Source: a bacterium (GTDB lineage Bacteria; UBA10199; JADFYH01). From it: a DNA stretch of 64,000 nucleotides. The stretch is from contig JAXMHI010000008.1 of assembly GCA_046346885.1 (NCBI GenBank), forward strand, positions 52,049 through 116,048. Direction: 5' to 3'. Positions within the stretch are counted from its first letter, which is position 1, and each line of letters starts with the position of its first letter. Under the pieces are notes generated by a model. That model was not told where the DNA came from. It saw only the letters and a list, made by a program, of their open reading frames with translations, and ran no database searches. Shown here piece after piece: positions 16,575 through 53,582 of the stretch. The translations under genes and the position numbers were made by a program.

Positions 16575-16682
16575 ACGGAAGGAATGGGATTTCCCCTAAG
16601 GGGATTTCCTCGGCCTAAGCCTCAGTCACGAACCAGTTAATAAAAATGTGGGTTCTCATCCCACTCTCTATTGAATCAAAAA

Positions 16683-16769
16683 CGGAAGGAGTGGGATTCG
16701 AACCCACGATACCCTTTCAGGTATGCCGGTTTTCAAGACCGGTGCCATCAACCGCTCGGCCATCCTTCC
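16683..16769 (-). tRNA. tRNA-Ser (anticodon TGA)
   Basis: Reverse complement folds as GGAAGGA acceptor, anticodon loop CTTGAAA, long variable arm, and T-arm GTGGGTTCGAATCCCAC. Confidence 0.85.
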
Positions 16770-16797
16770 GATTCGCGATCGCTGGCAAAGCCAGACG

Positions 16798-16834
16798 CTC
16801 GCTAAAGCCAAGGGGAGCACTCCGTAGCTCCCCT
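16798..16834. repeat. Copy 1 of a 37-nt repeated element containing the hairpin GGGGAGC-N8-GCTCCCC
   Basis: CTCGCTAAAGCCAAGGGGAGCACTCCGTAGCTCCCC nearly identical to 36558-36594; followed by CCATTGG; lies upstream of tRNA-Ser on the minus strand. Confidence 0.6.
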
Positions 16835-17077
16835 TTTACCCCATTGGATGAGGAACTTTTATGATTATATAGCCTTATGCCAGTGGGATCTCACTTTTCT
16901 AAAGCACTTGCACTGATTCGTAAAGAATGTTTTAAAAAGACCCCCTTTATCGATAAAATGTAGTTTTCTTTAAAAAGAAAATACCTTATCCGGTGGGGGT
17001 TGAAGGGGGAGACCGGACTTCTCCCCCTGGGTTAGAAGGAGGGTCTGGCTTTGCCAGCCCGAGTGGAATCATCGGAA

Positions 17078-17167
<90 letters not shown>

Positions 17168-17179
17168 TAAAAATTTTTA

Positions 17180-17253
17180 GCGCCCATAGCTCAGTTGGAT
17201 AGAGCGTCGGTCTACGAAACCGAAGGTCGCATGTTCGAATCATGCTGGGCGCG
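17180..17253 (+). tRNA. tRNA-Arg (anticodon ACG)
   Basis: GCGCCCA acceptor, D-arm GCTCAGTTGGATAGAGC, anticodon loop CTACGAA, T-arm GCATGTTCGAATCATGC; 74 nt. Confidence 0.9.
17215..17253 (+). repeat. attL-like 39-bp direct repeat (3' half of tRNA-Arg)
   Basis: CGAAACCGAAGGTCGCATGTTCGAATCATGCTGGGCGCG is identical to 19203-19241. Confidence 0.8.
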
Positions 17254-17264
17254 CTTTAAAATCA

Positions 17265-17303
17265 AGCACTTAGGCCTTTCGGTCTAAGTGCTTTTTCTTT
17301 TTT
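17265..17303. terminator. Bidirectional intrinsic terminator between tRNA-Arg and the convergent beta-helix gene
   Basis: AGCACTTAG-gcctttcgg-CTAAGTGCT stem-loop followed by TTTTCTTTTTTT. Confidence 0.65.
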
Positions 17304-17388
17304 TGCGCTCACCGCTTTCAAGATCTGATTATCCAGTGTTAAATCGGCAAGCCCTTCTTGGTTTGGTTTTACAAAATAGTTTTGAAGA

Positions 17389-19116
17389 CTAAAGAGACGC
17401 TTTCCTTTTTTGGCGGAACAGGAGCGCGAGAGGGAAAAAGAACACGCCAAGCTGAAGAAGATTCCCGTCTTTCACCGAAGGATTCAAACTGCAACCGCCG
17501 CCTCCGGAGACACTATTACTTCCACCATTATTGGTCCCGGCAGCATTCACTGTGGTTGAGGACGAGGCGGTATTGTTGGCGGTATTCGGATCAAAGTCAT
17601 CACTTCTGACATTCACCGTGTTAGAAACGGAGCCGTTTGCACTTGCGGTGACAATGACAGTGACAAGCGCAGACTCTCCTTTGGCCAGGATTCCGAGGGA
17701 ACAGCTAAGCTGGGGTGCTCCCGAGCAGGTGCCTTGATTGCTGAGAGCATTTACAAACGCGACTTGGCTGGGCAAGTTATCCGTAAGCACCACATTCAAC
17801 GCGGCTTCTGGGCCGTTGTTGGTGACGGTCAAAACATAGGTGATGTCTTGTCCAACTTCCACCGCATCGGGAAAAGCCACTTCGGTGATGGCCAAATCGG
17901 CAACGCCTTGGCCGTATTCGATGGCACCAATATCCACTATACCGTTGATGATGCGATTTTTACCTTCGAAGTCAGTGGAAGGTAAGCCGTCGGGAGGATT
18001 GTTGTCGCCTTTGTTGATGAGAGGTGAGTTTGCTTGGAGGCGATAATCGTCCGCTGCAGGATCTACATATAAAGGATCGCTATTGGCGGAACTCAAAACT
18101 GTGTGTGGTCCTGGAGAATACCCTCCAAAAAATTCGTTAGAATTGAAGAAAAAATTATTGTCGTTATTAATAATCAATTGGGGCGTTGCAGCAGAAGGGA
18201 ATACCACTCCTTCCGGAGTGTTCGTAATGGCATTGTTGTATAGGTTAATGGTCGTTTGATCGGTACCAAACGACGAATAGGTAGCAACCCCGAGATGGTA
18301 TATATTATCGATTGTGTTGTTGACAATATTCGCGACTGTAGTCACCGCATTGGGACTTCCAATGATATTGCTATAACCAATAACGATCGCGGCCGGTGGT
18401 CCGGAAGGCAGTTTTGCCAAGGAGTGAAAGATATTATTGTAGATATTGATTTGCGCATTTCCAACACCCGCCCCATTCGTTTCTACACCAAGAGAATTGA
18501 TAGCTGGGTCCGCAGAAGTGATTTCATTGGCAATAATGGTGATAGTGCTGTTGCCCGGGTTAGATAGCCTATAGTTGTAAGTAATTCCTTTGGGTGAAGT
18601 GATAATTTTATTACCTTGGATCAATACATTATTATCGACGGTAGCATCGATGAATATTCCGGCCTGATTGGTGGAAGCATTATTAGTAAGAGTGCAGTTT
18701 GTCACTGTAACTTGGTCTACACCAAGGTGAGGATGGGAAAAATCAAACTCTAAAGAGGCACCGTTAAAATTGATATGATCAAGATTGATACTGACGGCTT
18801 GATTGTCATTAAAAAAGAGCGTCTGGGGGTTATTAATATTTCCGCTTCCGATTTGAGGTTGAAAGCCTGGGGCCGCAGTTAATGTAATGCTGTTTGTGCT
18901 AATAATGCTTTCATTGATTAAGTTATTCGTCGCAATCTGAATCTCGTCCCCTGAATTTGCACCATTGATACAGGCTTGCAAGGTCGTATCACATGGCGCA
19001 GAACCTGGATAAGCGAGGGTAGCCGCATGGGAAGAAGCGGTACAGACTAGGCTTAAGGCCACAAAGCCCGCCGAGACCCATTTTTTTTTGCCCCAAATGG
19101 AAAAACGAGAATTCAT
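17389..19116 (-). CDS. Secreted right-handed parallel beta-helix protein with DUF11 repeat and C-terminal Gly-rich/TM/basic sorting-like tail
   Basis: Signal peptide MNSRFSIWGKKKWVSAGFVALSLVCTASSHAAT. Asn-rich beta-helix repeats. DUF11-like segment LAITEVAFPDAVEVGQDITYVLTVTNNGPEAALNVVLTD. C-terminal SGGGGCSLNPS...LLQLGVFFFPLALLFRQKRKASL. Internal ATG at 19116 has SD GGAGAAG. Confidence 0.6.
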   Translation of the reverse strand: MNSRFSIWGKKKWVSAGFVALSLVCTASSHAATLAYPGSAPCDTTLQACINGANSGDEIQIATNNLINESIISTNSITLTAAPGFQPQIGSGNINNPQTLFFNDNQAVSINLDHINFNGASLEFDFSHPHLGVDQVTVTNCTLTNNASTNQAGIFIDATVDNNVLIQGNKIITSPKGITYNYRLSNPGNSTITIIANEITSADPAINSLGVETNGAGVGNAQINIYNNIFHSLAKLPSGPPAAIVIGYSNIIGSPNAVTTVANIVNNTIDNIYHLGVATYSSFGTDQTTINLYNNAITNTPEGVVFPSAATPQLIINNDNNFFFNSNEFFGGYSPGPHTVLSSANSDPLYVDPAADDYRLQANSPLINKGDNNPPDGLPSTDFEGKNRIINGIVDIGAIEYGQGVADLAITEVAFPDAVEVGQDITYVLTVTNNGPEAALNVVLTDNLPSQVAFVNALSNQGTCSGAPQLSCSLGILAKGESALVTVIVTASANGSVSNTVNVRSDDFDPNTANNTASSSTTVNAAGTNNGGSNSVSGGGGCSLNPSVKDGNLLQLGVFFFPLALLFRQKRKASL

Positions 19117-19202
19117 TTTTGCTTCTCCTTCTATAAAAATTTCATTAAGAAAAACGGTTAGTTGATGATTCAAAGTCGGGCATTTCGATGATTTTCTCCA
19201 CC

Positions 19203-19241
19203 GAAACCGAAGGTCGCATGTTCGAATCATGCTGGGCGCGT
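19203..19241 (+). repeat. attR-like 39-bp direct repeat (copy of the tRNA-Arg 3' half)
   Basis: Identical to 17215-17253. Confidence 0.8.
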
Positions 19242-19267
19242 TCCCAAAAAAACGAGGGAGTTGCGCG

Positions 19268-20020
19268 ATGGAAAAACTCTCCATCATTGTTCCTGTCTAT
19301 AACGAAGCGGCTCAATTGCGCCAAGTGATTGAGACCTTGATGGCTTCTTACTCTCCAATCCCCCGAGAATGGATTTTCGTCGACGACTGCTCGACGGACC
19401 CAAGCCTCTCTATCCTGCGATCTCATGCATCGCGTTATGGTTATCGTATTTTAACCCAAGAAAAGAATCTGGGAAAAGGAATGGCCGTCATTCGGGGAGT
19501 TCGCGAATCCACCGGAGATATAGTCATGGTCCAGGACGCCGATTTTGAATATGACCCGAATGAAATCCCCTCGTTGCTCGAGCCGATTTTAAAAGGGGAG
19601 GCGGATGTCGTTTACGGCAGCCGTTTCAAAAAGAAGACTCCTGCCTCCCGCCGCACTTGCCATTATTTCGCCAATCGCCTTTTGACGGCCTTGAGCAATG
19701 GGATGTCGGGCCTTCATCTCACCGATATGGAAACCTGTTATAAAGTGTTTCGAGCCGACTTGTTGAAGGCGATGAACTTGAAATCCAAACGCTTTGGGAT
19801 CGAGATCGAGATGACGGCGTATGTGACGAAAGTGCGGGCAAGACTGGAAGAGCGGCCCATTTCTTATCGCCCACGCACTCGTTTGCAGGGGAAAAAAATC
19901 AATTGGAAGGACGGTTTTGCCGCTTTCTTCCATCTCGCGCGCTTTTATTGGTTTACCCCTTTAACCGAAGCTTTTCATGAAGTCCCCCCGCCGTATTCCC
20001 ATTTCCCTAAAAAATTCTAA
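19268..20020 (+). CDS. Family 2 glycosyltransferase (polyprenyl-phosphate sugar transferase / GtrB/DPM1-like)
   Basis: LSIIVPVYNEA...FVDDCSTD...VMVQDADFEYDP...VVYGSRF are GT2 DxD-type motifs. ATG at 19268 has SD GAGGGA. Confidence 0.75.
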   Translation: MEKLSIIVPVYNEAAQLRQVIETLMASYSPIPREWIFVDDCSTDPSLSILRSHASRYGYRILTQEKNLGKGMAVIRGVRESTGDIVMVQDADFEYDPNEIPSLLEPILKGEADVVYGSRFKKKTPASRRTCHYFANRLLTALSNGMSGLHLTDMETCYKVFRADLLKAMNLKSKRFGIEIEMTAYVTKVRARLEERPISYRPRTRLQGKKINWKDGFAAFFHLARFYWFTPLTEAFHEVPPPYSHFPKKF

Positions 20021-20060
20021 GGCCGGCCTGTTTTCAACGAGTCCGGGTCCGATTGCTGGG

Positions 20061-21467
20061 TCAATAATACCGGTTCGAAAGCGCAAGGACCGTATCTCCC
20101 AAGAGAACCAAAGTCACGAGGGGGAGAACCCAAGGGAGCAGGAATTTTTCTCCGAACGCGGCTTCAACACGGTGGTTGTAAAGAAGTAGAAACGCGGGGG
20201 GAGCCAAGGGAACGAGATATCGACCGTAAAAGGCGTCGATTCGATCTGATCCCACCGCGTTGAAGGTGAGGTATTGCACGAAGAAAATGAAGAGCAGGTT
20301 CAGGGTGATCACAAAAAAAAGAAGGGCTTTGTCCTTCCAAGAAAAGGAAAAGGAGGGATTTTCGTCGGTCAGCGCGGTGAAAATGAGAAAAAAGAAAAGA
20401 AGGGCCGGAGCAAACCAAGAAAGGCGCACATCCAGCCAACCGAGGCCCCCGACGTATTGTTCCGCCCAAAATTTAAAATCGCTCACGATCGTATTCCCGA
20501 TCGCCGAGAAAAACACGGCGGGATGAGATAGGATCAGATGAAGCTGTTCATCGGGAAAAATGTTGGGAATCGGTCTTAAGGGAATAAAAACGCCTTTTCC
20601 GTGGAGCGACCAGGCAAGACTCGCGAGAAACCCGGGAGTAAATACGAGGACGAAACTTTTGAAGAAGCCGAGGGGGGCTATGAACTTGCGTCTTGGAATC
20701 AGGAAGAACAAGAGCGCGAGACAAAGGTATCCGGGTTTGGAAACCGATAGGAGGAAAGACAAGAGAGCGAGGATTCCGAGTTCCTTCTTCCCGACGGTGT
20801 CCACCGGGTCCGACTTGAGCTTAAGGAGGAAAGAGACGAGCAACAGGGAAATCCCGTTCGTAAAGGTGTCCGCCGAAACGGAGGCCGCTTGAAACAAGGA
20901 CATGGGAGTTAAGGAAAGAAAGGCGAAAAGCCATTTGCCGACCGGTGAAGTTTTGACGGCAATGAAAACAAGCAGCGTCCAAACGGAAAAATTGAACAGC
21001 CTGGCGCCGTACATGAGAATTAAGGGCGAAAGTTGAAAGATCCGGCCGGCGGCGATTCCTATGGCTTGAGGAAGGTAAGTCGGGGGAGGGTATAAGGCGG
21101 TATTCCTAAAATCCAGGAAGGTTCGGTTGTGGGGGGCCAGGGGCAGGTGAAGTAGGGAGAATATTTCTTTCCGATCCGCCTTGTTTTCAGGATGAAAGGG
21201 GATGGCGCCGAATGGTAAGGTCGTTTTGTTGAGGCTTGCCGGTAAGAAATCACCCACTTGGTGGTTCATTTTTCGGGCGAAGAAATTTCCTTCGGAAATT
21301 TGATAAGCCCTGAAGAAATGGGCAAATTCATCCGCGGCTTGGAAGGGGGGCGTTAGAAAAATAAATAAGGTTCCAAAGATAAGGGAGAAAAAAAGAAATA
21401 CGTTTTGGGGTTTAAAGGAAAACATTTCCGATGGGACGTTTCGGGGAGCTTCATTTTCCGGCTTCAA
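20061..21467 (-). CDS. Polytopic membrane protein, DUF2142-like (putative glycosyl/arabinosyl transferase-type)
   Basis: About 11 hydrophobic helices; N-terminal LTPPFQAADEFAHFFRAYQISEG resembles the DUF2142 signature. The ORF track starts at a TTG; alternative ATG at 21425. Confidence 0.45.
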   Translation of the reverse strand: MKPENEAPRNVPSEMFSFKPQNVFLFFSLIFGTLFIFLTPPFQAADEFAHFFRAYQISEGNFFARKMNHQVGDFLPASLNKTTLPFGAIPFHPENKADRKEIFSLLHLPLAPHNRTFLDFRNTALYPPPTYLPQAIGIAAGRIFQLSPLILMYGARLFNFSVWTLLVFIAVKTSPVGKWLFAFLSLTPMSLFQAASVSADTFTNGISLLLVSFLLKLKSDPVDTVGKKELGILALLSFLLSVSKPGYLCLALLFFLIPRRKFIAPLGFFKSFVLVFTPGFLASLAWSLHGKGVFIPLRPIPNIFPDEQLHLILSHPAVFFSAIGNTIVSDFKFWAEQYVGGLGWLDVRLSWFAPALLFFFLIFTALTDENPSFSFSWKDKALLFFVITLNLLFIFFVQYLTFNAVGSDRIDAFYGRYLVPLAPPAFLLLYNHRVEAAFGEKFLLPWVLPLVTLVLLGDTVLALSNRYY

Positions 21468-21571
21468 GTTTCCAGGCGATATAGCATTCTTATTTTTCCC
21501 CGCAACCTTATTTCATAAGAGTCGATTGTTACTTAGGTTTTTTAAATCTCATTCATTTATAGTGGTTTTGC

Positions 21572-24500
21572 ATGGAGCGTGCTCAGCTTAACGGGAGTGG
21601 AGAATTTTCTTTGCCCAGCGGCGAGGAATCTTCCGTCCTTCAAGACTCGGTCCTTTCGCGCCTCTCCGCGACCTCGCTTTCGTCCGTCTCTTCGTTGACG
21701 GAAAGCCAGGCGCAAGTGGACGTGCTTGTCGGCCGTTTCGCGGAAGAGGCCACGAATTGGCGGTCGCTCGCCGCCATGGCGACGGGATCGTTGTTCTACC
21801 GATTCGGCCGTATCGGTGCGCTAGCTTTGGCTTCGCGCTTACCCCAGGCGGCTCCTTTGTTCCAGGCGGCGTCCTACGGCGTCGGCTTGGCGACGGAAGT
21901 GGCGGCTTTCGAAGGCTCAAGCCGTTTCTTGGCGTACGCATCCGGAGACCGGTCGAACGCCAATCTTTGGAACTGGAACGGTCGCGGCGGTTGGCGCGAG
22001 GGACTCGCTCATTCTTTCGTGACCTTCGGCATGCTGAAGAGCGTGGGATTTTTAGCGCGCGAACAAAATGTCGTCTTGCAACACACGGTGAGCGATTTGG
22101 CGATGGTGGGCGGCAATCAGGTGGCGGCCGCGTTCGGGTTTGGTCCCCGTCCGGAAGGGAATTTTGCTTCGCAGATGCTGGAAGCGGAAGTAACCAATCT
22201 CCAGCTGGGCGCGGGGATGAGTTTATTGCACGGCGTTGCTCCAGGACTCGCCGCCTTCGAGAGGGCTTTGGATCTTACCGCATCGTCGGCGACGCCGGAT
22301 TTCCGCGCATCCCTTTCAAGTCTTCCGGATTTTTCTCCTTACCGCCCCGCTTATGCGGAAGGGGTGGAGAACTCGGACTCTTCGGTCCGATCTTTGGAGC
22401 CCCAGCGGGGTCCCACGATTTTGCAGATGACGATCGACGACGGGAAAAAGCCGGGCCGAGGCGTCGATACCTTGGATGCGCCTCCTGGTCTTGATCCAGC
22501 CGCCGGCGTTTCCCAACCCCTGCGCCGCAGCCCCCCTCCTCCTCCTTCTCCTCCGGGGCAGCCCATCGTTTTTCAGCCGGGCAGGAAGTTCGGCCCCGAT
22601 AGCGCTTTCCCCGAGGGGCGTTATGAAGTGATCCGTTGGTACGCCCAAGGCGGCTTCGGTAACATTTACCTTGTTCGCGATCATAAATTGAACCGCGACG
22701 TGGCGACAAAGATCCCCCGGGAGAACTTATACACGCAAGAGCATCTGGACCGCTTTCATCGGGAAATTCAGATTACGTCGCAGCTGGAGCTGGACGGGGA
22801 AAGTCTGGCGACCGTGCTCGACTTGGTGACCTTGCCCGAGGGCATGACCATCCCCATCATGAAATTCCTTCCGGGCGACGACTTGCTCAAATTGCGCACG
22901 CAATATTACCAACGGGATCGGGACGTTCTTCGTTTATACCCCTTGGAGCGCCGCATCGAAATTTTCGCGGAAATTTGCAAGATCGTCGATTCGGCCCACG
23001 AACAAGGAGTCATTCATCGAGATTTGAAGCCGGGCAACATCCGCATTCTTCCCGACGGCCGAGTGGTCCTCCTCGATTGGGGGCGGGCGATCAACATTCA
23101 CGGGGAGGAAGTGGTGCCTGGAGAGGAAGATCCGTCCTCCCACCCGAAAGGCTCCGTGCATTTGACCAGTCCCGGAAAGGTGATGGGAACGCCCGGCTAT
23201 ATTCCGCCGGAAGCGGGTTTGCTTCTTCCTCCGGATTCCTCCCCCCGATCCATCGACGTCTTTGCCTTGGGTGTCATTCTTTATGAGTGGATGACGGGCG
23301 TTCATCCCTTCGCCTTTTTCGAGTCCGGCAATACGGTCAGAGGCCAGGCGGAGAAGATCCCCCGTCGAGATCCTCACGGAGAAACGCAAATGAACGAAGT
23401 GGCGTCGTTCATGCGCTTGCCGAAGAACGAGCCTCCTCCCTTTCGGAGTGTGGTGACCGGCGAGCATCCATCCTATTTTTTCGAAATGGAGACCATCGCC
23501 CGCAAAGCCTTCGCCAATGATCCGAAATCCCGTTATTCGACCGCCCGAGAGTTGCGGGAAGCGGTGCTCATGGCGAGGGCCCAAGTCACCCGCCGCCGCA
23601 TTCATACCATCCAGGAGGAGATCGACCGTCTTCGGGAACAAGCGGAGCACGAGTGGGAAATTCTGCGTCATTCCCCGCAAGTGAAGAACGAAGCCCAGTG
23701 GGCGCGCATGCACGATCCCCTCTACGCGATGGTGGAGCTCCGACAGGAATGGCGCGAGTTGGCCCGCGGCGTCACGAACTACTTAAGTGGGAAACTCCAC
23801 CTGCTTTCCCAGCCGGAAATTGCGCGGGGCCTCATCGCCGAAATGAACTGGCTGCTGCTCATCGACGGCGGCGACCGCATGCCGCAGCAAGTTCGCGAGG
23901 AGCTGATGCAGACCATCCGGGAGAACGATTTGCCCAACGAGCAGGGAAGGGATTTCGGTTTCGCCCGCGCCTTGGAAGGGGATGCCTCGCTGCGTTTGCG
24001 GGTCCGAGATTTTTTTTCGGGGAAGGGTTTGGCCGCCTCCGAACTCAAAGTGAAAATCATTCCGCTGGTTCGGGAAGTGGGGAAGAACGGAAGGGAAACG
24101 CTCAATTTTCGTGAGGGACAAGAGGTCGAATTCGAGGGAGAAGATCTCCGGTCTCTAAGGCTTCCCGCGGGTTATTATATCGCGCAGGTTTCGCGCCCCG
24201 GATATGCGACGGCGAGGGTCCCCTTGGAAGTGACGCTCGATCAAGTCCGGCAGGGCCTTTTCTCCCAAGGGGATCTGCCTTGGGAAGTGGAGATGGTGCC
24301 GGTGGAGGAGGTGCCCGAGGGGTTTCGTTTGATTCACCAAGGAGTCGCCACGCTCGGTTATAATATTTTCCACGGCGAGATGCCCACCGACGTTTATAGT
24401 TCTCCCGAAAGAAAAATGCCCTTCCAATCCTTTTTGGCCAAAGAATTTCCGGAGACGGTTCAAGAGTACGTCACTTATATCGAAGATCGGCTCAACACGA

Positions 24501-25285
24501 TCAACGTGGCTCTGCAAAAGGGAAACATGGAGCGCGTGCGGCGCATCTTAAAAGAGGTGAGGGAGGCGGTGCCCAGGGCCCAGGCGACGGTACCCGACGC
24601 CCTGCCGGAGGACTTGTCCAAGTCTTTCGAAGGATTAAACCTTTACTGGCGCATCCGTTCACGGGGAAGTTTGGAGGAGAGAAATCTAAGATTTTTCATG
24701 GAGGATCCCACGTCTCATCCCGATCCGAACGGCGATCCCATGCGCGCTCGACAACCGATCAACGCGATTTCATATTTGGGAGGCGAGTCTTACGCGCGTT
24801 GGTTGAGCCGCACCCACGGGGTTCGGTATGAAATCGCCTCCGCGGAACAAGAAGAGATCATGGCCCGTAGCGCCCTGCCGTTTCCCTATCCGTGGGGATA
24901 CCGTTTCAATCCCTTTTATGTGGTTTCCCGTTCGGTCTTCTCCGATCTCATCAAAGGCACCTATCCCCAAGACGTGGGAACTCATCCTTTGGGGCAAGGG
25001 CAATATCGGGATTATTCCCTCGTTTACGGCATCCGGGATTTGATCGGCAACGTGCGTCGTTCCACCTCGACCCAGGTGGAGCCGGATACTCCCGCGAGTG
25101 AATCCACTCCCGCTCAACCGGGCACCATCTTCGTGAAAGGGGGATCTTTGCGGGTTCTTTGGGGGCCTTTCTTCCGGGCGGGGGTGGAGGCCCATGTGCG
25201 GAAAAACATCGCCGATGCCAGCATGGGAGGTTTCCGTCTTGTCGTCAATCTGACGGATCGGCGTTATTCTCCAAGAGTTCCTTAA
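21572..25285 (+). CDS. Paralog A: conserved N-module + Pro-rich linker + Ser/Thr protein kinase (DWG variant) + PEGA + FGE-sulfatase-like C-terminal domain
   Basis: 1237 aa. N-module (aa ~45-245) is 80-95% identical to the other two paralogs. Kinase motifs GGFGNIY, VATKI, HRDLKPGN, DWG, GTPGYIPPEA. PEGA-like LRLPAGYYIAQVSRPGYATARVPLEV. C-terminal YPWGY...GNV...KGGS...GFRLV matches the FGE/SUMF1 fold but lacks the catalytic Cys pair. Confidence 0.8.
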   Translation: MERAQLNGSGEFSLPSGEESSVLQDSVLSRLSATSLSSVSSLTESQAQVDVLVGRFAEEATNWRSLAAMATGSLFYRFGRIGALALASRLPQAAPLFQAASYGVGLATEVAAFEGSSRFLAYASGDRSNANLWNWNGRGGWREGLAHSFVTFGMLKSVGFLAREQNVVLQHTVSDLAMVGGNQVAAAFGFGPRPEGNFASQMLEAEVTNLQLGAGMSLLHGVAPGLAAFERALDLTASSATPDFRASLSSLPDFSPYRPAYAEGVENSDSSVRSLEPQRGPTILQMTIDDGKKPGRGVDTLDAPPGLDPAAGVSQPLRRSPPPPPSPPGQPIVFQPGRKFGPDSAFPEGRYEVIRWYAQGGFGNIYLVRDHKLNRDVATKIPRENLYTQEHLDRFHREIQITSQLELDGESLATVLDLVTLPEGMTIPIMKFLPGDDLLKLRTQYYQRDRDVLRLYPLERRIEIFAEICKIVDSAHEQGVIHRDLKPGNIRILPDGRVVLLDWGRAINIHGEEVVPGEEDPSSHPKGSVHLTSPGKVMGTPGYIPPEAGLLLPPDSSPRSIDVFALGVILYEWMTGVHPFAFFESGNTVRGQAEKIPRRDPHGETQMNEVASFMRLPKNEPPPFRSVVTGEHPSYFFEMETIARKAFANDPKSRYSTARELREAVLMARAQVTRRRIHTIQEEIDRLREQAEHEWEILRHSPQVKNEAQWARMHDPLYAMVELRQEWRELARGVTNYLSGKLHLLSQPEIARGLIAEMNWLLLIDGGDRMPQQVREELMQTIRENDLPNEQGRDFGFARALEGDASLRLRVRDFFSGKGLAASELKVKIIPLVREVGKNGRETLNFREGQEVEFEGEDLRSLRLPAGYYIAQVSRPGYATARVPLEVTLDQVRQGLFSQGDLPWEVEMVPVEEVPEGFRLIHQGVATLGYNIFHGEMPTDVYSSPERKMPFQSFLAKEFPETVQEYVTYIEDRLNTINVALQKGNMERVRRILKEVREAVPRAQATVPDALPEDLSKSFEGLNLYWRIRSRGSLEERNLRFFMEDPTSHPDPNGDPMRARQPINAISYLGGESYARWLSRTHGVRYEIASAEQEEIMARSALPFPYPWGYRFNPFYVVSRSVFSDLIKGTYPQDVGTHPLGQGQYRDYSLVYGIRDLIGNVRRSTSTQVEPDTPASESTPAQPGTIFVKGGSLRVLWGPFFRAGVEAHVRKNIADASMGGFRLVVNLTDRRYSPRVP

Positions 25286-25353
25286 TCTTGATTTGCCTGC
25301 CTGAAACGTCAAACTTTCCGATATAAAGCGTCAAAACCCCATTTTTTAAACGT

Positions 25354-25375
25354 AACTAAATAATATTATTTAGTT
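25354..25375. promoter_or_regulatory. Perfect 22-bp AT palindrome in the AT-rich upstream region of the small repeat-protein gene
   Basis: AACTAAATAATATTATTTAGTT is a perfect inverted repeat. It sits in a ~300-bp stretch of about 25% GC, ~210 nt upstream of the ATG at 25586. Confidence 0.35.
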
Positions 25376-25585
25376 ATTTGTTTTTATTTTCTAATAAAGA
25401 AAAAGAGTTTTTCCCCTTTTCTCCGGGTGATTTTTTACTTTTTTTATTCTCTCCTCTCTCTGTGACAAACAATCATAATTATTTGATTTTATTTAATTTT
25501 TTTAAAAATGCCTAAAAGGGCATGGCCTTTGCGTAACAGTCCCCCCGGGTGTGTGATTTTTTTACTCATGAAAAAGGGGGATGGA

Positions 25586-25891
25586 ATGAATAAAAAATCA
25601 ATTATTATCATGGTGTTATTATTCTCATGGATCGGTCTTTCCACTGTCGCCCGGGCGGAAACCATTGCTGAGAGAAATCTCAAATCCACCTTCGGTTCCT
25701 CCGTCATTTATCAAAACCAAGGGCCCCAATTTATGCCGACCGGCTTGGTTCAAAACCAGGGGCCTCAGTTTATGCCGACGAGTACGGTGGAAAATCAGCC
25801 GCCTCAATTCATGCCGGTGGGAACGGTTCAAAATCAGGGGCCCCAGTTTATTCCCGTCAATTGGCGTTATAACCAGCCTCCGCAGTTTTAG
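25586..25891 (+). CDS. Small secreted tandem-repeat protein (QNQGPQFMP repeats)
   Basis: Signal peptide MNKKSIIIMVLLFSWIGLSTVARA. Five imperfect 13-aa repeats (V)QNQGPQFMPTGL. SD AAGGGGGA upstream of the ATG at 25586. Confidence 0.6.
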   Translation: MNKKSIIIMVLLFSWIGLSTVARAETIAERNLKSTFGSSVIYQNQGPQFMPTGLVQNQGPQFMPTSTVENQPPQFMPVGTVQNQGPQFIPVNWRYNQPPQF

Positions 25892-25918
25892 ACCTTGTTT
25901 CTTCTCCGGGTTGTTGCA

Positions 25919-25953
25919 AGGCCCGTATCGGTGTTTTTTTACCGGTGCGGGCC
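25919..25953 (+). terminator. Putative terminator hairpin after the small repeat-protein gene
   Basis: GGCCCG...CGGTGTTTTTTTACCG...CGGGCC nested inverted repeats with a T-run. Confidence 0.35.
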
Positions 25954-26063
25954 TTCTTATTTGCGGAAATTTCTTTGATTTTCTGGCAACCTTCCCCCTT
26001 GCAGGCCGATAGGGCTTAGACTCCACCATTGTTTTTTCCTTAAGGATTGGTTCGGGTTTGTTT

Positions 26064-29000
26064 ATGACCTTTGGCTCCTCCATTTTTCGTTCGGCCCCGG
26101 ATGCCACTTTGCCGGATCATACGGAGACGCTACTCTCCCGTTTCTCTTCCCATTCTTTAGTCAATGATTCTTCCTTGAGTGCTTCCCAAGCGCAGGTGGA
26201 CGGTCTTGTGAGTCGTTTCACGGAAGAGGCGACGAATTGGCGGTCTTTGGCGGCGATGGCGACGGGTTCTTTGTTTTATCGCTTCGGCCGCATCGGTACC
26301 TTGGCCTTGGCCTCGCGCCTGCCTCAAGCGGCGCCTCTGTTTCAAGCGGCGTCCTACGGCATCGGTCTTGGGGCGGAAGTGACGGCTTTCGAAGGATCGA
26401 GCCGTTTCTTGGCGTATGCCTCGGGAGATCGATCGAACGCCAACTTGTGGAGGTGGAGCGGGAGAGGCGGATGGAGCGAGGGTTTGTCTCATTCCCTCGT
26501 CACCTTCGGCATGCTGAAGAGCTTCGGCCATTTGGGGAGCGAGCAGAATGTTGTTTTGCAACACGTGATGTCGGATTTGGGGATGGTGGGAGGGCATCAG
26601 GTTTCCGCCGCGTTGGGATTCACGCCTCGTCCCGAGGGGAGCCTTGCCTCACAATTCCTAGAAGCGGAGATTACCAATCTACAGCTCGGCGCGGGGATGA
26701 GCTTGTTGCACCTGGCGTCGCCCCGTCTGGCCGCTTTCGAACGGGGATTGGATCTTTCCATCCGCGCGCGGGAAACGACGGGCGCCCCGAATCGGAATTT
26801 AGAAAATTTTTTCGGGCCTCAAGAACAGCTTGTGTTCGACGGTGCGCCCGTGAGCCGAGAAACATTTGCGCCGGAGAACCCTTTTGAGGGACCTCAGATT
26901 CTTCTCATGTCTTCGAAAGAAGGCCCTAATAACGGAAAAGGAACGATTCCCGATCCGTCGAAGGTTCAACGCCCCGATTCGGTAATGGAAGTGACTCCTT
27001 CGATGATGGTTCCTCCTTCCGGCGTGGGGGTGGAAGGCCTCTCGAACGGAGAGGAGGTTGCGGATGGAGAAGTGATTCCAGGGGTTCCGATACGGGTGGT
27101 ATCCGAATCGGCATTGGCGCCGACTTCTCCGGCCCCGCCGGCGGTGGCGCCTGTCGTTATTAAACCCGGGGATGCCGATGCCGCGGCTGTGGATGCGGAT
27201 CCGCAGAGTGTGGGCGATCAACGGACCGTCGTGCGTCCCCTCCAACTTCCGCTTCCACCGGCCGTTCCGAACGGCGTCAGGGCGGGGGGCGCGGAAACCT
27301 TGCGCGAACAAGAAGTCGTTTCGAAGCTTTCCATCGCGCCTCCTCCCTCGGGAACCGTGGAAAGCGGAATGATCTTGGCGGGTCGCTACGAAGTGAAGGA
27401 ATTTCTCGGCGCTGGCGGTTTCGGAAACGTCTACAAGGTTCTCGATCAGCGCTTGGGCCGCATCGGCGTGATCAAGGTGCCGAGAGCCGAGATGGATACG
27501 GTCGAGTTCAGGCCGCGCTTCTCGAATGAAATCCGCATTACCGCCGCCCTCGATCCGCGTCGGGTCGTGGGGGTTTACGATTTGATCGAGCTCGCCGACG
27601 GGCGGCTCATCCCCGTGATGGAATACGTGCCCGGGCATGACCTCTCGGACATCGTGGGTCAACTCTCCGTAAGCCGCCGTTTGGAAATCTTCGCCGAGAT
27701 TTGCGAAGGGGTGGCTTCCGCCCATCGGAGAGGTTTCGTTCACCGTGATTTAAAGCCCGCCAACATCCGCATTACCTCCGACGGCCACGTGAAAATCATG
27801 GACTGGGGCCTGGCCAAACCGCTCGACGAAGTGACCGCGGGTGAAGGAGGGGCGGTCCCCACGGACCTTTCCGCGCGACTGAAAAGAAATTTGACCGTAG
27901 GAGGGGGCGGCATGCCCTTCGGGACGCCCGGATACATTGCCCCCGAGGCGTTTTTAGGCGGGAAGATTCCCAACCCGCGCTCTCTCGATAACTTCGCGTT
28001 GGGCGCCATTCTCTATGAGATGATGAGCGGGCGGCATCCTTTCGTGGACGATTGGAGCGAGCAGCGGGCCGTCGCCAATTACATGTCGACCCATCCTTCC
28101 GTGATCAGGCCCGTCTCGGAATTTAAGGATGTCCTCATCGGCGACTATCCGCCCATCGTTTACGAGGTGGAACCCATCGCCCGGCGCAGCCTGGAAAGAG
28201 AGCAGGCGAAACGTTTTCAAAACGCCCTCGAGATCCGCGATGCCGTGTTGATGGCACAGGCCCGCGTCGAGTTTAGGGCCATCGGCGAGGTGCGCACCGA
28301 AATGAAGCGGCTCGCCGCCCGGATGGTGGAGGCCTGGGATCATTTTGATCCTTCCCACCAAATCGACTCGAATTATTGGGATCAAGAAATGTATCAAACC
28401 CTCTACGACGTGAGGGATCGCCGCGCTGCCATGGACCAGCGGGCCATCGACTTGATCGCGCAGCTGGCGGAAATCAAGGTCGTGCTCACCGACCCCAACC
28501 CGGCCAAGAAGATGATCGCGGAGCTCTCTTGGATGCGCTTACTTTATGGGGGAGACCGGATGCCGGAGGGGCAGAGGCGGCTCCTGATCGACGCCATCTC
28601 GAAAAATGACGTCGCTACGGCGGAAGAAAAGATTCCCAGCATGAAGCTCGCGCTGGAAACGCCGCTTGGGATGGAGATCCGAGCGACCGATTGGCGGACC
28701 GGAAAATCCCTTTTTCAAGACGGGAGCTCCTTATATCACATGAACGTCAAGGTGCTTCCCTATGAACGGGACCGTTTGGGGAATTACAGCGAAGGGGCTC
28801 CCCTTTTAGACGGCCCTTTGGCGACCGTGCTTCCGCAGATGCACTTAAAGGCGGGATATTACGTGATCGAGGTTTCTTATCCCGGCTATGCGCCCATGCG
28901 AGTTCCTTTCCACATGAGGCTCAAGGACGTGCGGCGCGGTTTGCTGGAGGAGAAGCCCCATCTTCTGAATTTGGAGTTTATCCCTCAAGACCTCGTCCCT

Positions 29001-29939
29001 TCCGATTTCGACGTCATTCATGGCGGCTACGGCTACATCGGTCACGATTATATTTACGAAGGCGATCCCGCAAACGGTTACAGTCAACCGCTCCGGAAGG
29101 TGCAATACTCGACTTATGCGATTTCCCGGGTGCCCCCGCGGGTCCGTGATTATAAGGTTTTCATCGATTCGGAGTTGAGCATGGCCAACGCCTTGATCCG
29201 CGCCGGAAAGATCCGCGACGCGGGAATCCTGCTCAATCGTCTGAGGAATTTCATTCCGAGAAACCAGGCGGTGCCGCAAATTCCCGAAGACCGGATCACC
29301 GACGATCCGGCGACGCTCGTGCCTCTTTTCGAGAAGACCCCTTATTTGTGCTGGAGAGTGCGCATTCATCAAGAAGACGGTCTTCCCCAATTCTCGCTCA
29401 TCGACCCCTGGACCCACCATGACCGGGAGAACGGAGGGTATCCGATCTTGGAGCACGCCTCCGTGAGCGCGATTCCTTATCAAGCGGTGGAGGCGTTTCG
29501 GGATTGGCGGCGCGACCGGGACAATAGGGATTATGAAATCATGTCCGCAGAGGAAAACGAGATCATGGCCCGCGGTTCGTGGGAGCTCCCCTATCCTTGG
29601 GGCTACCATCCCAATCCCGCCTATTTAGTCTCCCGCTTGGTATTCGAAGATACTTGGAAAGACTCCTATCCCCGTCCTGTGGGTTCCCATCCCATGGGGC
29701 AACACCATTATCGCGATCGTTCGCCGTTCGGTCCCATTGACGTTTTGGGAAATACTCGAAAATGGACCTCGACCGTGATGGAGCCCGACGTCAATGCCAT
29801 GGCGGGTTTGTCCGTGAGGACGGGAACGGGGCCTTACGGGAATCCGGACTCCCGAACCTTAGGATCGACTGATAACTGGGCGGTGGATGCTAATGGTTCC
29901 TTCCGGCTTGTGCTGCGTTTTCCCCGCCGGAATCCATAA
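26064..29939 (+). CDS. Paralog B: conserved N-module + linker + Ser/Thr protein kinase (DWG variant) + PEGA + FGE-sulfatase-like domain
   Basis: 1293 aa. N-module nearly identical to paralog C. Kinase motifs GAGGFGNVY, VIKV, HRDLKPAN, DWG, GTPGYIAPEA. PEGA-like HLKAGYYVIEVSYPGYAPMRVPF. C-terminal YPWGY...GNTRKWTST...GSFRLV. The ATG at 26064 gives an MTF... start like paralog C. Confidence 0.8.
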   Translation: MTFGSSIFRSAPDATLPDHTETLLSRFSSHSLVNDSSLSASQAQVDGLVSRFTEEATNWRSLAAMATGSLFYRFGRIGTLALASRLPQAAPLFQAASYGIGLGAEVTAFEGSSRFLAYASGDRSNANLWRWSGRGGWSEGLSHSLVTFGMLKSFGHLGSEQNVVLQHVMSDLGMVGGHQVSAALGFTPRPEGSLASQFLEAEITNLQLGAGMSLLHLASPRLAAFERGLDLSIRARETTGAPNRNLENFFGPQEQLVFDGAPVSRETFAPENPFEGPQILLMSSKEGPNNGKGTIPDPSKVQRPDSVMEVTPSMMVPPSGVGVEGLSNGEEVADGEVIPGVPIRVVSESALAPTSPAPPAVAPVVIKPGDADAAAVDADPQSVGDQRTVVRPLQLPLPPAVPNGVRAGGAETLREQEVVSKLSIAPPPSGTVESGMILAGRYEVKEFLGAGGFGNVYKVLDQRLGRIGVIKVPRAEMDTVEFRPRFSNEIRITAALDPRRVVGVYDLIELADGRLIPVMEYVPGHDLSDIVGQLSVSRRLEIFAEICEGVASAHRRGFVHRDLKPANIRITSDGHVKIMDWGLAKPLDEVTAGEGGAVPTDLSARLKRNLTVGGGGMPFGTPGYIAPEAFLGGKIPNPRSLDNFALGAILYEMMSGRHPFVDDWSEQRAVANYMSTHPSVIRPVSEFKDVLIGDYPPIVYEVEPIARRSLEREQAKRFQNALEIRDAVLMAQARVEFRAIGEVRTEMKRLAARMVEAWDHFDPSHQIDSNYWDQEMYQTLYDVRDRRAAMDQRAIDLIAQLAEIKVVLTDPNPAKKMIAELSWMRLLYGGDRMPEGQRRLLIDAISKNDVATAEEKIPSMKLALETPLGMEIRATDWRTGKSLFQDGSSLYHMNVKVLPYERDRLGNYSEGAPLLDGPLATVLPQMHLKAGYYVIEVSYPGYAPMRVPFHMRLKDVRRGLLEEKPHLLNLEFIPQDLVPSDFDVIHGGYGYIGHDYIYEGDPANGYSQPLRKVQYSTYAISRVPPRVRDYKVFIDSELSMANALIRAGKIRDAGILLNRLRNFIPRNQAVPQIPEDRITDDPATLVPLFEKTPYLCWRVRIHQEDGLPQFSLIDPWTHHDRENGGYPILEHASVSAIPYQAVEAFRDWRRDRDNRDYEIMSAEENEIMARGSWELPYPWGYHPNPAYLVSRLVFEDTWKDSYPRPVGSHPMGQHHYRDRSPFGPIDVLGNTRKWTSTVMEPDVNAMAGLSVRTGTGPYGNPDSRTLGSTDNWAVDANGSFRLVLRFPRRNP
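26178..26770. repeat. Left arm of a ~590-bp near-identical inverted repeat (N-module coding DNA of paralog B)
   Basis: The same out-of-frame ORF translation (MAVFGGDGDGFFVL...GDELV) appears at 26237-26887(+) and 33435-34130(-). This implies >95% nucleotide identity in inverted orientation. Confidence 0.75.
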
Positions 29940-30166
29940 TTTTCCTCAAATTTTTTAAAGATGGGCTCAATGGACTAAAATGATATTTAATTTTGGTTCC
30001 TAAAGTCCCCACCCGCGTCATTATTTTGACTGGTCCCTAAATCATGCTTAAATTGTTAAAATAATTAACTCTTTTTAAGTAATCCTTCCTTTTTTCATGA
30101 AAAAAATTGGGTGAAAACACCTCACTTTGATCAAGTCTTAACAAGTTTGAAATAACTATAAATATA

Positions 30167-30178
30167 TGATATTTAATT
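30167..30178. promoter_or_regulatory. AT-rich motif TGATATTTAATT, also at 29981-29992 and similar to the 25354-25375 palindrome
   Basis: Two exact copies lie upstream of the second small repeat-protein gene, within a 320-bp AT-rich region; a similar TAATATTATTTAGTT lies upstream of the first. Confidence 0.35.
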
Positions 30179-30258
30179 GAAATCTAAAAAACGCCCCCTA
30201 TGGCATAAGATCTGCTTCATTATCAACGGGTTGGTGATCATAAAAGGAGGATAGATTC

Positions 30259-30711
30259 ATGAGAAAAGGATTTTCGCTTTTTATTTTGGGTGCGGTCTTA
30301 TTGGCTTTCCAATCAGCGGGGTTTACGGAGGAAGTGGCCCACGATATGCAATTTTGCAGTCAGAAGAACGTGGATGAGCTCACCGTTAACGAATTGAAAG
30401 ACTGCGTCACTCACTTCAAAAAAACCATTAGCGCGAAAAACGGAAACATCTTGGAGATGGCTCCCCAAACCTTGACGGAAATGCCGCCTCAAACCTTGAC
30501 GGCGATGCCGCCGCAAACCGTCAATGCGATGCCGCCGCAGACGGTGAATGCCATGCCCCCGCAAACAATCAACGGAATGGCGCCGCAGACGATCACGGCG
30601 ACTCCCGTTTTCATGGCGCCTCAAACGATCAACGCGATGCCTCCCCAGACGATCAACGGGGTGAACTCGGTGATCGAGAAAAAAGGCATGGCCCCCCAAA
30701 CGCTGCGCTAA
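30259..30711 (+). CDS. Small secreted tandem-repeat protein (MPPQTxxA octapeptide repeats)
   Basis: Signal peptide MRKGFSLFILGAVLLAFQSAGF. About 9 tandem repeats of MPPQT(L/V/I)(T/N)(A/G). Strong SD AAAAGGAGGA. Confidence 0.65.
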   Translation: MRKGFSLFILGAVLLAFQSAGFTEEVAHDMQFCSQKNVDELTVNELKDCVTHFKKTISAKNGNILEMAPQTLTEMPPQTLTAMPPQTVNAMPPQTVNAMPPQTINGMAPQTITATPVFMAPQTINAMPPQTINGVNSVIEKKGMAPQTLR

Positions 30712-30736
30712 GAATAAAAAAGGAATCGTGGAAGAA

Positions 30737-30766
30737 AAGGCCCCCTTGTGGGGCCTTTTTTATTTT
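30737..30766. terminator. Bidirectional intrinsic terminator between the repeat-protein gene and corA
   Basis: GGCCCCC-ttgt-GGGGGCC perfect hairpin followed by TTTTTTATTTTT. Confidence 0.7.
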
Positions 30767-30776
30767 TGACGGAAAG

Positions 30777-31769
30777 CTAAAGCCACTTCTTTTTCTTGAA
30801 AAAGAAAATCATGCCTCCCGCCACCCCGATCATGATGAACCAGAGGAGATAATAAAAACCCTTCCAGTGGAATTCGGGCATGTAGTCGAAGTTCATGCCG
30901 TAGACGCCCACGATGAAGGTTAAGGGAAGGAAGATCGTGGCGGCGATGGTCAAGCGCTGCATGACGAAATTCAGATTGTTGGAAGACTCAGTCATCTTGA
31001 TGGAAAGCATGGCGGCATAAACGTCGAAGACCGACGCGGCGTGTTCCTTCAAACTTTCGAGTTCCTGCAGGAGCACCTGCATGTCGTCGAGCACATTCTT
31101 GAAGTAGGGCCGCGCCTCCGCGGAGATGCAAGGCAGGCTCTTTTCGTAGAGCTGCTTGATCACGTCGCGCTCGGGCAAGAGGTTTTTGCGCATGGTGGTG
31201 ACGAGCTTCTTGAATTGCAGAATTTGGTCGAGAATTTTCTCATGGGCACCTTTCAATACCTGGTGCTCGATTTCCTCGAGCATTTCCTGCCACTGTTCGA
31301 TGACGGGTTCGTGGTCTTTTACGGCGAGGTCCAAAAGGTGGAAGAGGACGTAAGGTGTCCCCTTGCCGAGCGTTTCTTGCGGTTCTTCCCGCACCCGTTC
31401 CCTCGCGGTGCCGAACGTGCGCGCCAAGTGGGCCCGGTGGATCGTGACGATGAACTGTTCGGAGAAAAACACTTCGAATTCGCGTCGCTCGCACTCTTCC
31501 CGATCGAAGTGGTAGAAGACCCGGTGCAACACGAGGAAAGCATAGGTCTCATAGAGGTTGATTTTCGGTACTCCCGCCATGCTCTTCACGTCTTCGACGG
31601 CCAGGGGGTGGAAACGGAAGACGGAATCCAGGATTTCCAATTCCGAGTCGGTGGGTTCGTCCAAGTCCACCCACACGCGGCGACGGTCGTTCAACGCTTC
31701 TTCGAGAAGTTTCAGGTCGTGGGTTTCGACGAGTTGTCCCGTTTCGGAAAAAAGCAGGATATGCAGCAT
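30777..31769 (-). CDS. corA: Magnesium/cobalt transporter CorA
   Basis: C-terminal two TM helices with the YGMNF (GMN) motif; 330 aa. Confidence 0.85.
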   Translation of the reverse strand: MLHILLFSETGQLVETHDLKLLEEALNDRRRVWVDLDEPTDSELEILDSVFRFHPLAVEDVKSMAGVPKINLYETYAFLVLHRVFYHFDREECERREFEVFFSEQFIVTIHRAHLARTFGTARERVREEPQETLGKGTPYVLFHLLDLAVKDHEPVIEQWQEMLEEIEHQVLKGAHEKILDQILQFKKLVTTMRKNLLPERDVIKQLYEKSLPCISAEARPYFKNVLDDMQVLLQELESLKEHAASVFDVYAAMLSIKMTESSNNLNFVMQRLTIAATIFLPLTFIVGVYGMNFDYMPEFHWKGFYYLLWFIMIGVAGGMIFFFKKKKWL

Positions 31770-43999: not shown

Positions 44000-44573
44000 T
44001 GTCTGGGGTCGGTCAAGGAGATTGAGTGGCGGAGAAGTGAAGTTTTTATAAAAACTAAAAAATTATCATGAGTTAAAGCAGAATAAAAAAATGAAGAGAG
44101 AAAGGAACGAAAAAGCTCCTTGTGGAAGTATTTTTACAAGTGCCTAGAATGACAGACGAAAAAAAAGATTTTTTGAAAAGCACAAAGAGATCGATGGAAA
44201 AGGATGAAGCAAGAGGTTTTTTTCGGAAGAAGCCCTCCTTATTTATTGAAGAAGAACTCGGGGAAATAAAAAATCAAAGACCCGCTTTTTCCATCTACCA
44301 AAGATTTGGGATCGTGATAGAGGTGTTAGAACTTTTTTTACTCATTTGAGGTTTTGACACGAACCAACGCGAGAGAAAGTAACGATAATAAAAGAAAGCA
44401 ATCACGGCCCAAAGTATTGACACTGCTCGGAGCATTCAATATACTTCTGAAAAATCAAATCTTTGGGTCAGGTTTTCAATTAAAAAAGAAGTCCTAAATT
44501 ACGAATCATTTTGAAACTCATGCGGGTGAGCCCGTGAAGCAAGAAGGCTTCCCGCGTTGCTTTTGAGGTTGTA

Positions 44574-52987: not shown

Positions 52988-53125
52988 CGTTTTGTCTCCT
53001 CAATAAGGGTGGAATGGCTTATTTTGGACTAAAATATGAGTATATACAAATTAAAATATGTGGTGTCTCTATTCTCCAGAATAAAGAAACGTATTCTAAA
53101 TTTTAAGCCTTTCCCAACTGCATAA

Positions 53126-53154
53126 TTTTAAAATCTTTTAAAATCATATAGTTG
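53126..53154. promoter_or_regulatory. AT-rich upstream element: 2x10-bp tandem repeat TTTTAAAATC plus IHF-like site AATCATATAGTTG
   Basis: Direct repeat at 53126-53145, overlapping a near-match to the IHF consensus WATCAANNNNTTR; located 35-70 nt upstream of the sigma54 promoter. Confidence 0.3.
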
Positions 53155-53179
53155 CTGATTTTAATCAAAATAAAAAGCT

Positions 53180-53195
53180 TGGTACGTGCTTTGCT
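53180..53195 (+). promoter_or_regulatory. Sigma54 (-24/-12) promoter
   Basis: TGGTACGTGCTTTGCT versus consensus TGGCACG-N4-TTGCW has one mismatch and correct GG/GC spacing. It lies 45 nt upstream of the small ORF at 53240 and is divergent from the sigma54-activator gene. Confidence 0.55.
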
Positions 53196-53239
53196 TTATT
53201 GAAAGGGCAATGGTGGGGGCTCTTTAAAAGGAGCAAAAA

Positions 53240-53386: not shown

Positions 53387-53582
53387 TTGTTAAAAGTTGC
53401 TCATAGGTCTCCCTTTTCGGGGAAAATAAAGGGGCTTGAGAAGCATTTTATTCGAAGAAAGACTCAACTTTACTCTCCCCCTCTCCGATAAACCTTATAA
53501 GGGACACACGCTTGGGGACGGCTGAAAGTCTATCTTTTTAGGCTTTTGACATCCCCATTCAGAATAAGGTGTAATAGAGATC

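Follow-up and report, generated by a model that had tools for sequence, protein, structure and literature searches.

A tRNA-Arg(ACG) gene and a second copy of its 3' part bracket a small, probably decayed one-gene islet in an uncultured bacterium

Why does the 3' part of a tRNA-Arg(ACG) gene stand a second time some 2 kb downstream of the intact gene, with a single gene for a putative surface protein in between? The question is raised by a 64,000-nt stretch of contig JAXMHI010000008.1 (assembly GCA_046346885.1; UBA10199, JADFYH01), here called the window, which comes from a metagenome-assembled genome (MAG). An earlier note, made from the letters of the window, had taken the arrangement for the attL/attR signature of site-specific integration into a tRNA gene. 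Our analysis leads to a similar view. With a probability of about 0.7, the DNA between the two copies is a small islet left by the site-specific integration of a mobile element at the anticodon-loop site of tRNA-Arg(ACG), now decayed and resembling a cis-mobilizable element (CIME). Direct observation covers the repeat and its place in the tRNA, the gene content and atypical composition of the bracketed DNA, its absence from relatives and the integrases at the same site in related bacteria; we infer both that an integrase made this insertion and that it was later lost.

The intact tRNA-Arg(ACG) gene was called on the + strand at 17180-17254 by ARAGORN and at 17180-17253 by Rfam (70.7 bits). It is one of three tRNA genes that ARAGORN reports for the window, together with tRNA-Ser(tga) (16682-16770, - strand) and tRNA-Ser(gct) (17078-17167, + strand). 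A search allowing up to 3 mismatches placed the 39-mer CGAAACCGAAGGTCGCATGTTCGAATCATGCTGGGCGCG at exactly two sites of the window, 17215-17253 and 19202-19240, both on the + strand and with their starts 1987 nt apart; in 100 shuffles of the sequence it had 0 matches, so that chance would be expected to produce none. The perfect 39-nt recurrence described previously is therefore real, with its second copy shifted by one base from the 19203-19241 first given. Counted by hand, the repeat runs from tRNA position 35, the second base of the anticodon, to the discriminator base at position 73, and the bases bordering it are not the same at the two copies on either side. No third copy, exact or degenerate, is present in the 64 kb, where only chance matches of 8-11 nt were seen. 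Copy 2 lacks the 5' half, receives no tRNA call from ARAGORN or Rfam, ends 27 nt upstream of the start codon of a family 2 glycosyltransferase (GT2) gene, and should not be annotated as a tRNA. A 3' fragment downstream of the intact gene, in the same orientation and with its boundary in the anticodon loop, bears out the proposed attL/attR signature; read from the sequence, the block is anticodon-centered, a position typical of tyrosine-integrase att sites.

The 39-mer does not belong to the dispersed repeats. It had 0 matches in the GTDB representatives (185,579 genomes, a collection to which the source MAG itself does not belong), and three IMG/VR scans (39-mer, degenerate 39-mer, 28-mer) returned 0 matches each and no phage attP. 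We found it in 17 metagenome contigs, where it is the tRNA-Arg gene itself, bar a few att-like cases. The earlier concern that the repeat might be widespread, and hence not related to att sites, was not borne out in any of these collections or in the window.

Between the two copies the GC content falls to 0.40-0.46. The bracketed DNA holds a hairpin terminator and, as previously noted, one minus-strand gene, which leaves non-coding stretches of 135 and 85 bp. The hairpin proper (17264-17293), followed by the T-run TTTCTTTTTT, is a strong terminator on the + strand; its description as bidirectional holds less well, the T-run on the minus strand being just TTTT. It sits 95 nt past the stop codon of the convergent islet gene, a layout common to an att-like site in a related contig (L104, see below) and to the native tRNA-Arg loci of relatives. 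Consistent with the claim that no integrase is present, a Pfam scan of about 45 large open reading frames (ORFs) of the window yielded no PF00589 match, and tblastn of the integrases of the related contigs L097 and L104 against the whole 64 kb left no trace.

By composition, the islet gene reads as foreign. Its GC content at third codon positions (GC3) is 0.469 versus 0.707±0.043 in 32 other genes of the window (z=-5.5), and its synonymous preferences are reversed, as for Asn, where AAT is used in 66% of cases versus 35% elsewhere. The part encoding a predicted beta-helix has the lowest GC3 (0.41) and is also the most divergent from the closest homologue, P0002, with about 30% identity in this part and about 80% at both ends. 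Another homologue, P0007 (43% identity), has host-like GC3 in its own genome, where it lies next to a kinase/sigma-54 activator gene and no tRNA was found within 10 kb. Set against the low GC3 of the islet gene, the situation of P0007 speaks for a foreign cargo.

Two routes led to relatives: homologues of the S-adenosylmethionine (SAM) hydrolase encoded near the tRNA genes, and a scan of JGI metagenomes with a degenerate 39-mer. Six loci have murA-hisD-SAM hydrolase and the same three tRNAs (L083, L084/L101, L085/L086/L091, L088, L099 and L103), and the tRNA-Arg of L083 and L103 is identical to that of the window. The islet gene is absent from 6/6 of these syntenic loci, so the possibility that relatives all carry it at this position can be set aside. 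A second tRNA-Arg copy was found in none of them except L103 (Ga0187892_10039093, 392-933, - strand), in which 103 nt separate the gene from a downstream 48-nt partial copy that starts from the anticodon stem. The spacer is a tRNA-Ser(tga) leader, without cargo, and 12 nt past the fragment come tRNA-Ser(tga) and a gene like PK1, a kinase gene of the window; an excision scar, an inversion or an operon duplication may account for the fragment. The DNA 3' of tRNA-Arg is different in each relative: the SAM hydrolase gene follows directly in L099, four small genes in L083, three genes, one of them with a Bro-N domain, in L084, a toxin-antitoxin pair in L098, and a 122-aa ORF with a peptidase in L085. 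This variation marks the site as a variable hot spot. Public sampling of the organism is poor: a scan of representative genomes anchored on hisD reached a best identity of 57%, with matches across many phyla, and gave no help with synteny.

Related contigs also carry integrases at this tRNA. In L097, a tyrosine integrase (46-1233; PF00589, E=1e-16) is convergent with a complete tRNA-Arg(ACG) about 80 nt away. L104 encodes a full-length homologous integrase (15-1157; 29% identity, E=2e-47; PF00589, E=1e-20), which is convergent with a 3' fragment of the tRNA, 47 nt long and without the 5' half, with a hairpin terminator after it; on the far side are helix-turn-helix and sigma-70 region 4 genes, and the layout reads as attP-like. 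In L089 (52-1371), a run of phage genes (terminase, portal and VRR-NUC) stops at a 47-nt tRNA fragment overlapped by a serine-recombinase-type ORF, an unusual pairing, since only tyrosine integrases are reported to target tRNA genes (PMC4383910). In the order of its parts the window agrees with L104, namely tRNA part, terminator and convergent gene, with the DUF11 gene of the islet in the place that the integrase takes in L097 and L104. The elements of these two contigs have another tRNA variant and another block start than the window, and belong to other genomes.

The locus can be compared with two kinds of known systems. In the Islander approach, an intact tRNA gene and a downstream 3' fragment in the same orientation map islands with single-nucleotide precision, and the survey found the 3' fragment in 3760/3919 islands and an anticodon-centered attP in 2083 (PMC4383910). 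More generally, tRNA-gene fragments are a widespread by-product of element integration, and PYG1 of Pyrococcus yayanosii is bounded by 44-bp tRNA-Gln repeats (PMC9897764). Our locus resembles Islander-type islands in its intact tRNA with an exact downstream 3' copy, the common orientation and the anticodon-centered boundary, and also in the atypical DNA between the copies and the variability among relatives. In contrast to those islands, the islet measures about 2 kb and has one gene and no integrase gene, and Islander filters would therefore reject it. CIMEs are decayed integrative and conjugative or integrative and mobilizable elements that keep attL and attR after loss of the integration and transfer genes (PMC5704250), and are catalogued in ICEberg 2.0 (PMC6323972). 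Like them, the islet keeps both att sites at a tRNA 3' end without recombination or transfer genes, and its neighbor is another accessory segment, an arrangement that tandem accretion could produce. Unlike them, it resides in an uncultured deep-branching host rather than in a Firmicute, and a related autonomous element did not turn up in its own genome, the integrase elements of L097 and L104 coming from others. To our knowledge, described CIMEs are also far larger than this islet. On this reading it is an ordinary kind of object, a tRNA-associated decayed CIME-like islet, in an unusual organism, notable only as minimal and cleanly bounded.

If this reading is correct, a tyrosine integrase would have recombined the attP of an element, made of a copy of tRNA positions 35-73 and then the terminator, with the chromosomal tRNA gene. 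The tRNA at 17180-17253 would have been regenerated by the element's copy, taking positions ~1-34 from the host and 35-73 from the inserted DNA (the attL side), and the native 3' part would have come to lie at 19202-19240, 1,987 bp downstream. Loss of the integrase and of any transfer genes would have followed, or these may never have been on this piece; what would remain is the terminator and one horizontally acquired surface-protein gene, in an islet immobile by itself.

Several observations weigh against this account. The islet is known from one MAG contig. Neither the islet nor the 64 kb contains an integrase gene or a fragment of one, and for this reason the enzymatic step enters the account as a deduction. 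The identity block of the window begins 8 nt later than those of L104, L089 and L103, so that another element or another integrase specificity is needed. The right copy, which should border the presumed native flank, has no terminator after it and runs straight into the GT2 gene, and it is the sequence after the complete tRNA that resembles the native 3' flank of relatives. The syntenic relatives, whose flanking proteins are 60-74% identical, yielded no exact empty site with tRNA-Arg joined to the GT2 flank, since they do not share the window's right flank, which is itself accessory. Finally, the cargo-free partial copy of L103 can leave room for other routes of duplication.

The assembly was checked against an independent k=31 Logan contig of run SRR26348421 (L087). 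Its first 30 nt (k-1) are exactly the final 30 nt of the right copy, after which come the GT2, DUF2142 and kinase genes. As the break lies k-1 bases inside the right copy, the repeat is real in the reads and makes the expected branch. To a k=31 graph, the integrated form looks the same as an empty site together with a circle, and the connectivity therefore rests on the MAG assembly. Exact-protein look-ups of the GT2 and the SAM hydrolase returned Logan run SRR26348421 only. These data also bear on the idea that unrelated contigs were joined through a common 39-mer, which we regard as very unlikely. The sequence is indeed a MAG contig, and breaks in the k=31 Logan contigs fall at the repeat and inside tRNA-Ser(tga), but typical reads, and also the final k-mers of metagenome assemblers, are longer than a 39-nt repeat, and a random mis-join would not favor the exact orientation and polarity of an island. 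The partial copy exists in the population anyway, since L087 joins it to the GT2 gene.

Two further explanations accept the repeat as genuine. One is that the 1,987-bp unit is a minimal one-gene cassette that is still mobile, being excised and integrated in trans by a tyrosine integrase that targets tRNA-Arg and is encoded elsewhere in the genome or on a co-resident element, and never having had an integrase of its own. Decay of a larger island accounts for the same facts, and this cassette seems rather unlikely to us: the 64 kb has no integrase, neither a circular junction nor an empty site was seen, no collection searched holds a second copy, and the att block is not that of the integrase-linked fragments. 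In its favor, both att copies are perfect (39/39 nt), 135 and 85 bp of non-coding DNA are too little for pseudogene debris, integrases for this tRNA are present in related bacteria, and the k=31 graph is compatible with the integrated form as well as with an empty site and a circle. The other explanation dispenses with an integrase altogether: the tRNA gene or operon would have been duplicated in tandem, a deletion would have removed the 5' half of one copy, and the DUF11 gene would be native or an unrelated arrival. The 48-nt partial copy of L103, 103 nt from the full gene with a tRNA-Ser leader between them, could have arisen in this manner, and the tRNA cluster is rearranged among relatives. 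Against such a route in the window stand the boundary in the anticodon loop, where integrase crossovers fall, and the bracketed DNA, which is foreign in composition and devoid of tRNA-operon sequence; moreover, an old neutral fragment would not remain 39/39 identical, and integrase-linked fragments of the same tRNA exist. We therefore consider it very unlikely. Integration followed by decay is the reading retained for the features collected in Table 1.

Table 1. Coordinates of the islet, its boundaries, the parts of its product and the adjoining genes.
Feature	Position in window	Strand	Basis and remarks
Intact tRNA-Arg(ACG)	17180..17253	+	ARAGORN, Rfam; identical to tRNA-Arg of L083 and L103
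Direct repeat copy 1, tRNA positions 35-73	17215..17253	+	exact 39-nt match
Bracketed islet DNA, 1,948 bp (1,987 bp including one repeat copy)	17254..19201		repeat spacing, GC dip, absence from syntenic relatives
Hairpin terminator directly 3' of tRNA	17264..17303	+	13-bp stem, 4-nt loop, T-run; inverted repeat I6
Sole islet gene, 575-aa predicted secreted/surface protein	17389..19116	-	ATG at 19116; identical to P0001
Three-part tail, aa 535-575: GGGGC motif, hydrophobic helix, RQKRK	17392..17514	-	conserved in P0002, P0007, P0008
DUF11/CLIPPER Ig-like domain, aa 407-520	17557..17898	-	Pfam PF01345, E=1.2e-28; Foldseek match 9ifr (CLIPPER domain)
Choice-of-anchor Q domain, aa 357-401	17914..18048	-	NCBIfam NF041518, 36.6 bits (cutoff 25)
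Asn-rich right-handed beta-helix (predicted), ~aa 45-325	18142..18984	-	AlphaFold, Foldseek
Signal peptide (predicted), aa 1-31, MNSRFSIWGKKKWVSAGFVALSLVCTASSHA followed by ATL	19024..19116	-	read from sequence; conserved in P0002
Direct repeat copy 2, displaced tRNA-Arg 3' fragment, attR side	19202..19240	+	exact 39-nt match; L087 start
GtrB-like GT2	19268-20020	+	GC3 0.558, z -3.5; phrog_841 'GtrB-like', E=5e-29
DUF2142 membrane protein gene	20061-21467	-	GC3 0.584, z -2.8

The product of the islet gene carries the NCBI label 'MAG: DUF11 domain-containing protein [bacterium]' under P0001. A 632-aa ORF running over the repeat is a mechanical extension and was rejected, because with the ATG at 19116 the protein matches P0001 and opens with a canonical signal peptide, which P0002 conserves. 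The signal peptide, the beta-helix and the DUF11 repeat proposed for this protein were each recovered, by reading of the sequence, by AlphaFold and Foldseek, and by PF01345, respectively. In the AlphaFold model, the beta-helix forms all-beta rungs of a predicted solenoid with a pLDDT of 80-95; the model was built from only 6 sequences, has a mean pLDDT of 68, and is of low confidence outside the beta-helix and DUF11 parts. By Foldseek, the solenoid model resembles the beta-helices of phage tailspikes and depolymerases, and the C-terminal domain resembles Ig-like domains of the CLIPPER and integrin type. Curated cutoffs were passed by PF01345 (100.1 bits, cutoff 24.6) and by TIGR01451 (46.1 bits, cutoff 24). 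The whole protein gave nothing significant against PDB sequences and 0 matches against PHROGs. Exact-protein look-ups found no record of P0002 or of the islet protein, whether as 575 aa or as a 613-aa edge version, and a second copy of the cassette was found in none of the collections searched. Taken together, the islet protein is probably secreted and anchored at the cell surface.

The C-terminal tail of the protein (SGGGGCSLNPSVKDGNLLQLGVFFFPLALLFRQKRKASL; also given as GGGGCSLNPSVKDGNLLQLGVFFFPLALLFRQKRKASL) had been likened to exosortase- or rhombosortase-type sorting signals of the GlyGly-CTERM, MYXO-CTERM or PEP-CTERM kind. The three-part tail is as described, and its Cys is invariant in P0001, P0002, P0007 and P0008, which have in common GGGC, a transmembrane (TM) helix and an Arg/Lys cluster. 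The named families fared less well, as the hidden Markov models of GlyGly-, PEP- and MYXO-CTERM remained unmatched. More specifically, the tail scanned alone did not match MYXO-CTERM (TIGR03901) even at E<=10, GlyGly-CTERM and PEP-CTERM gave no NCBIfam match, and there is no PEP motif. The sole match to any model, a weak one, was to JDVT-CTERM (NF033191), with 13.2-13.6 bits versus a cutoff of 27 and over the first 14 residues only; the DP motif of JDVT, nine residues after the Cys, is absent, residues +8/+9 being D-G in P0001 and R-G in P0002. In the Cys-type class described by Haft, which includes MYXO-, JDVT-, Synerg- and CGP-CTERM, the processing enzymes are CPBP myxosortases (bioRxiv 10.1101/2023.06.07.544157; PMC11980579). 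The tail resembles this class in its Gly-rich motif with an invariant Cys, TM helix and terminal Arg/Lys cluster on a secreted protein, which also bears a 'choice-of-anchor' domain. It differs in scoring below the threshold of every model, in being confined to one small family and in having no CPBP protease in the window. Neither an exosortase nor a rhombosortase was found among the window ORFs scanned with Pfam, a search for CPBP proteases in the window was likewise negative, and no other window ORF ends in such a tail. A profile of the four tails run against 1.84 billion representative proteins retrieved only the three query-family proteins that it represents. In architecture, the tail appears closest to the Cys-type MYXO/JDVT class, which makes it a candidate anchor 'on paper' and not a demonstrated shared sorting tag.

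To the right of copy 2, the GT2 and DUF2142 genes had been suggested earlier as possibly part of a larger accessory region, and their atypical GC3 (Table 1) and the lack of any DUF2142 homologue above 43% identity fit this suggestion. The DUF2142 search, aimed at the empty site via the right flank, gave a best non-self match of 43% identity, versus 70-74% for hisD of the relatives. The region 17254-21500 is accessory. The GT2/DUF2142 segment (19268..21467) may be an older accreted accessory segment, its membership in the islet being uncertain; its place to the right of copy 2 agrees with tandem accretion at such a hot spot, although it has no att copy of its own. The pair of GT2 and DUF2142 beside an att fragment recalls the gtr-type glycosylation modules that adjoin att sites in temperate phages. 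The closest DUF2142 homologues, at 43% identity or less, are mostly cyanobacterial.

Other features of the window were recorded in passing. Beyond the DUF2142 gene, three - strand genes have a paralogous N-terminal module (21572-25285, 26058-29939 and 31829-34285). PK1 and PK2, both Ser/Thr kinases, carry FGE-sulfatase-like domains at the C terminus and are 66% identical over 276 aa; PK2 is 91% identical to the 818-aa ORF over 219 aa. The paralogous N-module of PK1, PK2 and the 818-aa ORF recurs near tRNA-Arg in L085 and L103. Intergenic stretches at 25300-26060, 30000-30780, 44000-44870 and 53000-53580 are AT-rich (GC 0.44-0.47 versus ~0.56), and two small ORFs in such stretches (25508-25891, with GC3 0.55, and 30259-30711) have no family match. 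Tandem overlapping genes at 53583-55394 and 55391-57298 encode paralogous putative lipoproteins, 33% identical over 530 aa; the pair has a common N-terminal ACAGAGAPGGGA...GAPPIS-PGPEALNM and no Pfam match. Left of the islet, both tRNA-Ser genes are preceded by a conserved leader of ~85 nt (16771-16850, - strand, and 16990-17077, + strand) with two hairpins (AGGGGGAG...CTCCCCCT and CTGGC-TTT-GCCAG). The leader core TCTGGCTTTGCCAG occurs in the window only at these two places and is also found upstream of tRNA-Ser genes in L102 and L103; a search of the leader against Rfam gave no family match.

A bolder version of the findings would make the unit a functional single-gene 'att cassette', moved in and out of tRNA-Arg(ACG) in trans by tyrosine integrases of co-resident elements like those of L097 and L104, with a tail that is possibly also an undescribed Cys-type signal (GGGC[SA]LNPS-TM-RxxRK) served by a myxosortase-like protease. 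We give this proposal little credence; if it were true, the tRNA hot spot would be somewhat like an integron platform for surface-protein genes.

In conclusion, read as a decayed product of site-specific integration, the islet adds nothing new on mechanism, and its practical value is one of annotation: the fragment is not a tRNA, and the gene starts at 19116. Islets without an integrase, which are discarded by finders that depend on one, can still be mapped to the nucleotide. The tail is a pointer to a possibly undescribed Cys-type C-terminal anchor, and the islet as a whole would be a clean, minimal case of a tRNA gene serving as the landing pad that delivers one surface-protein gene.

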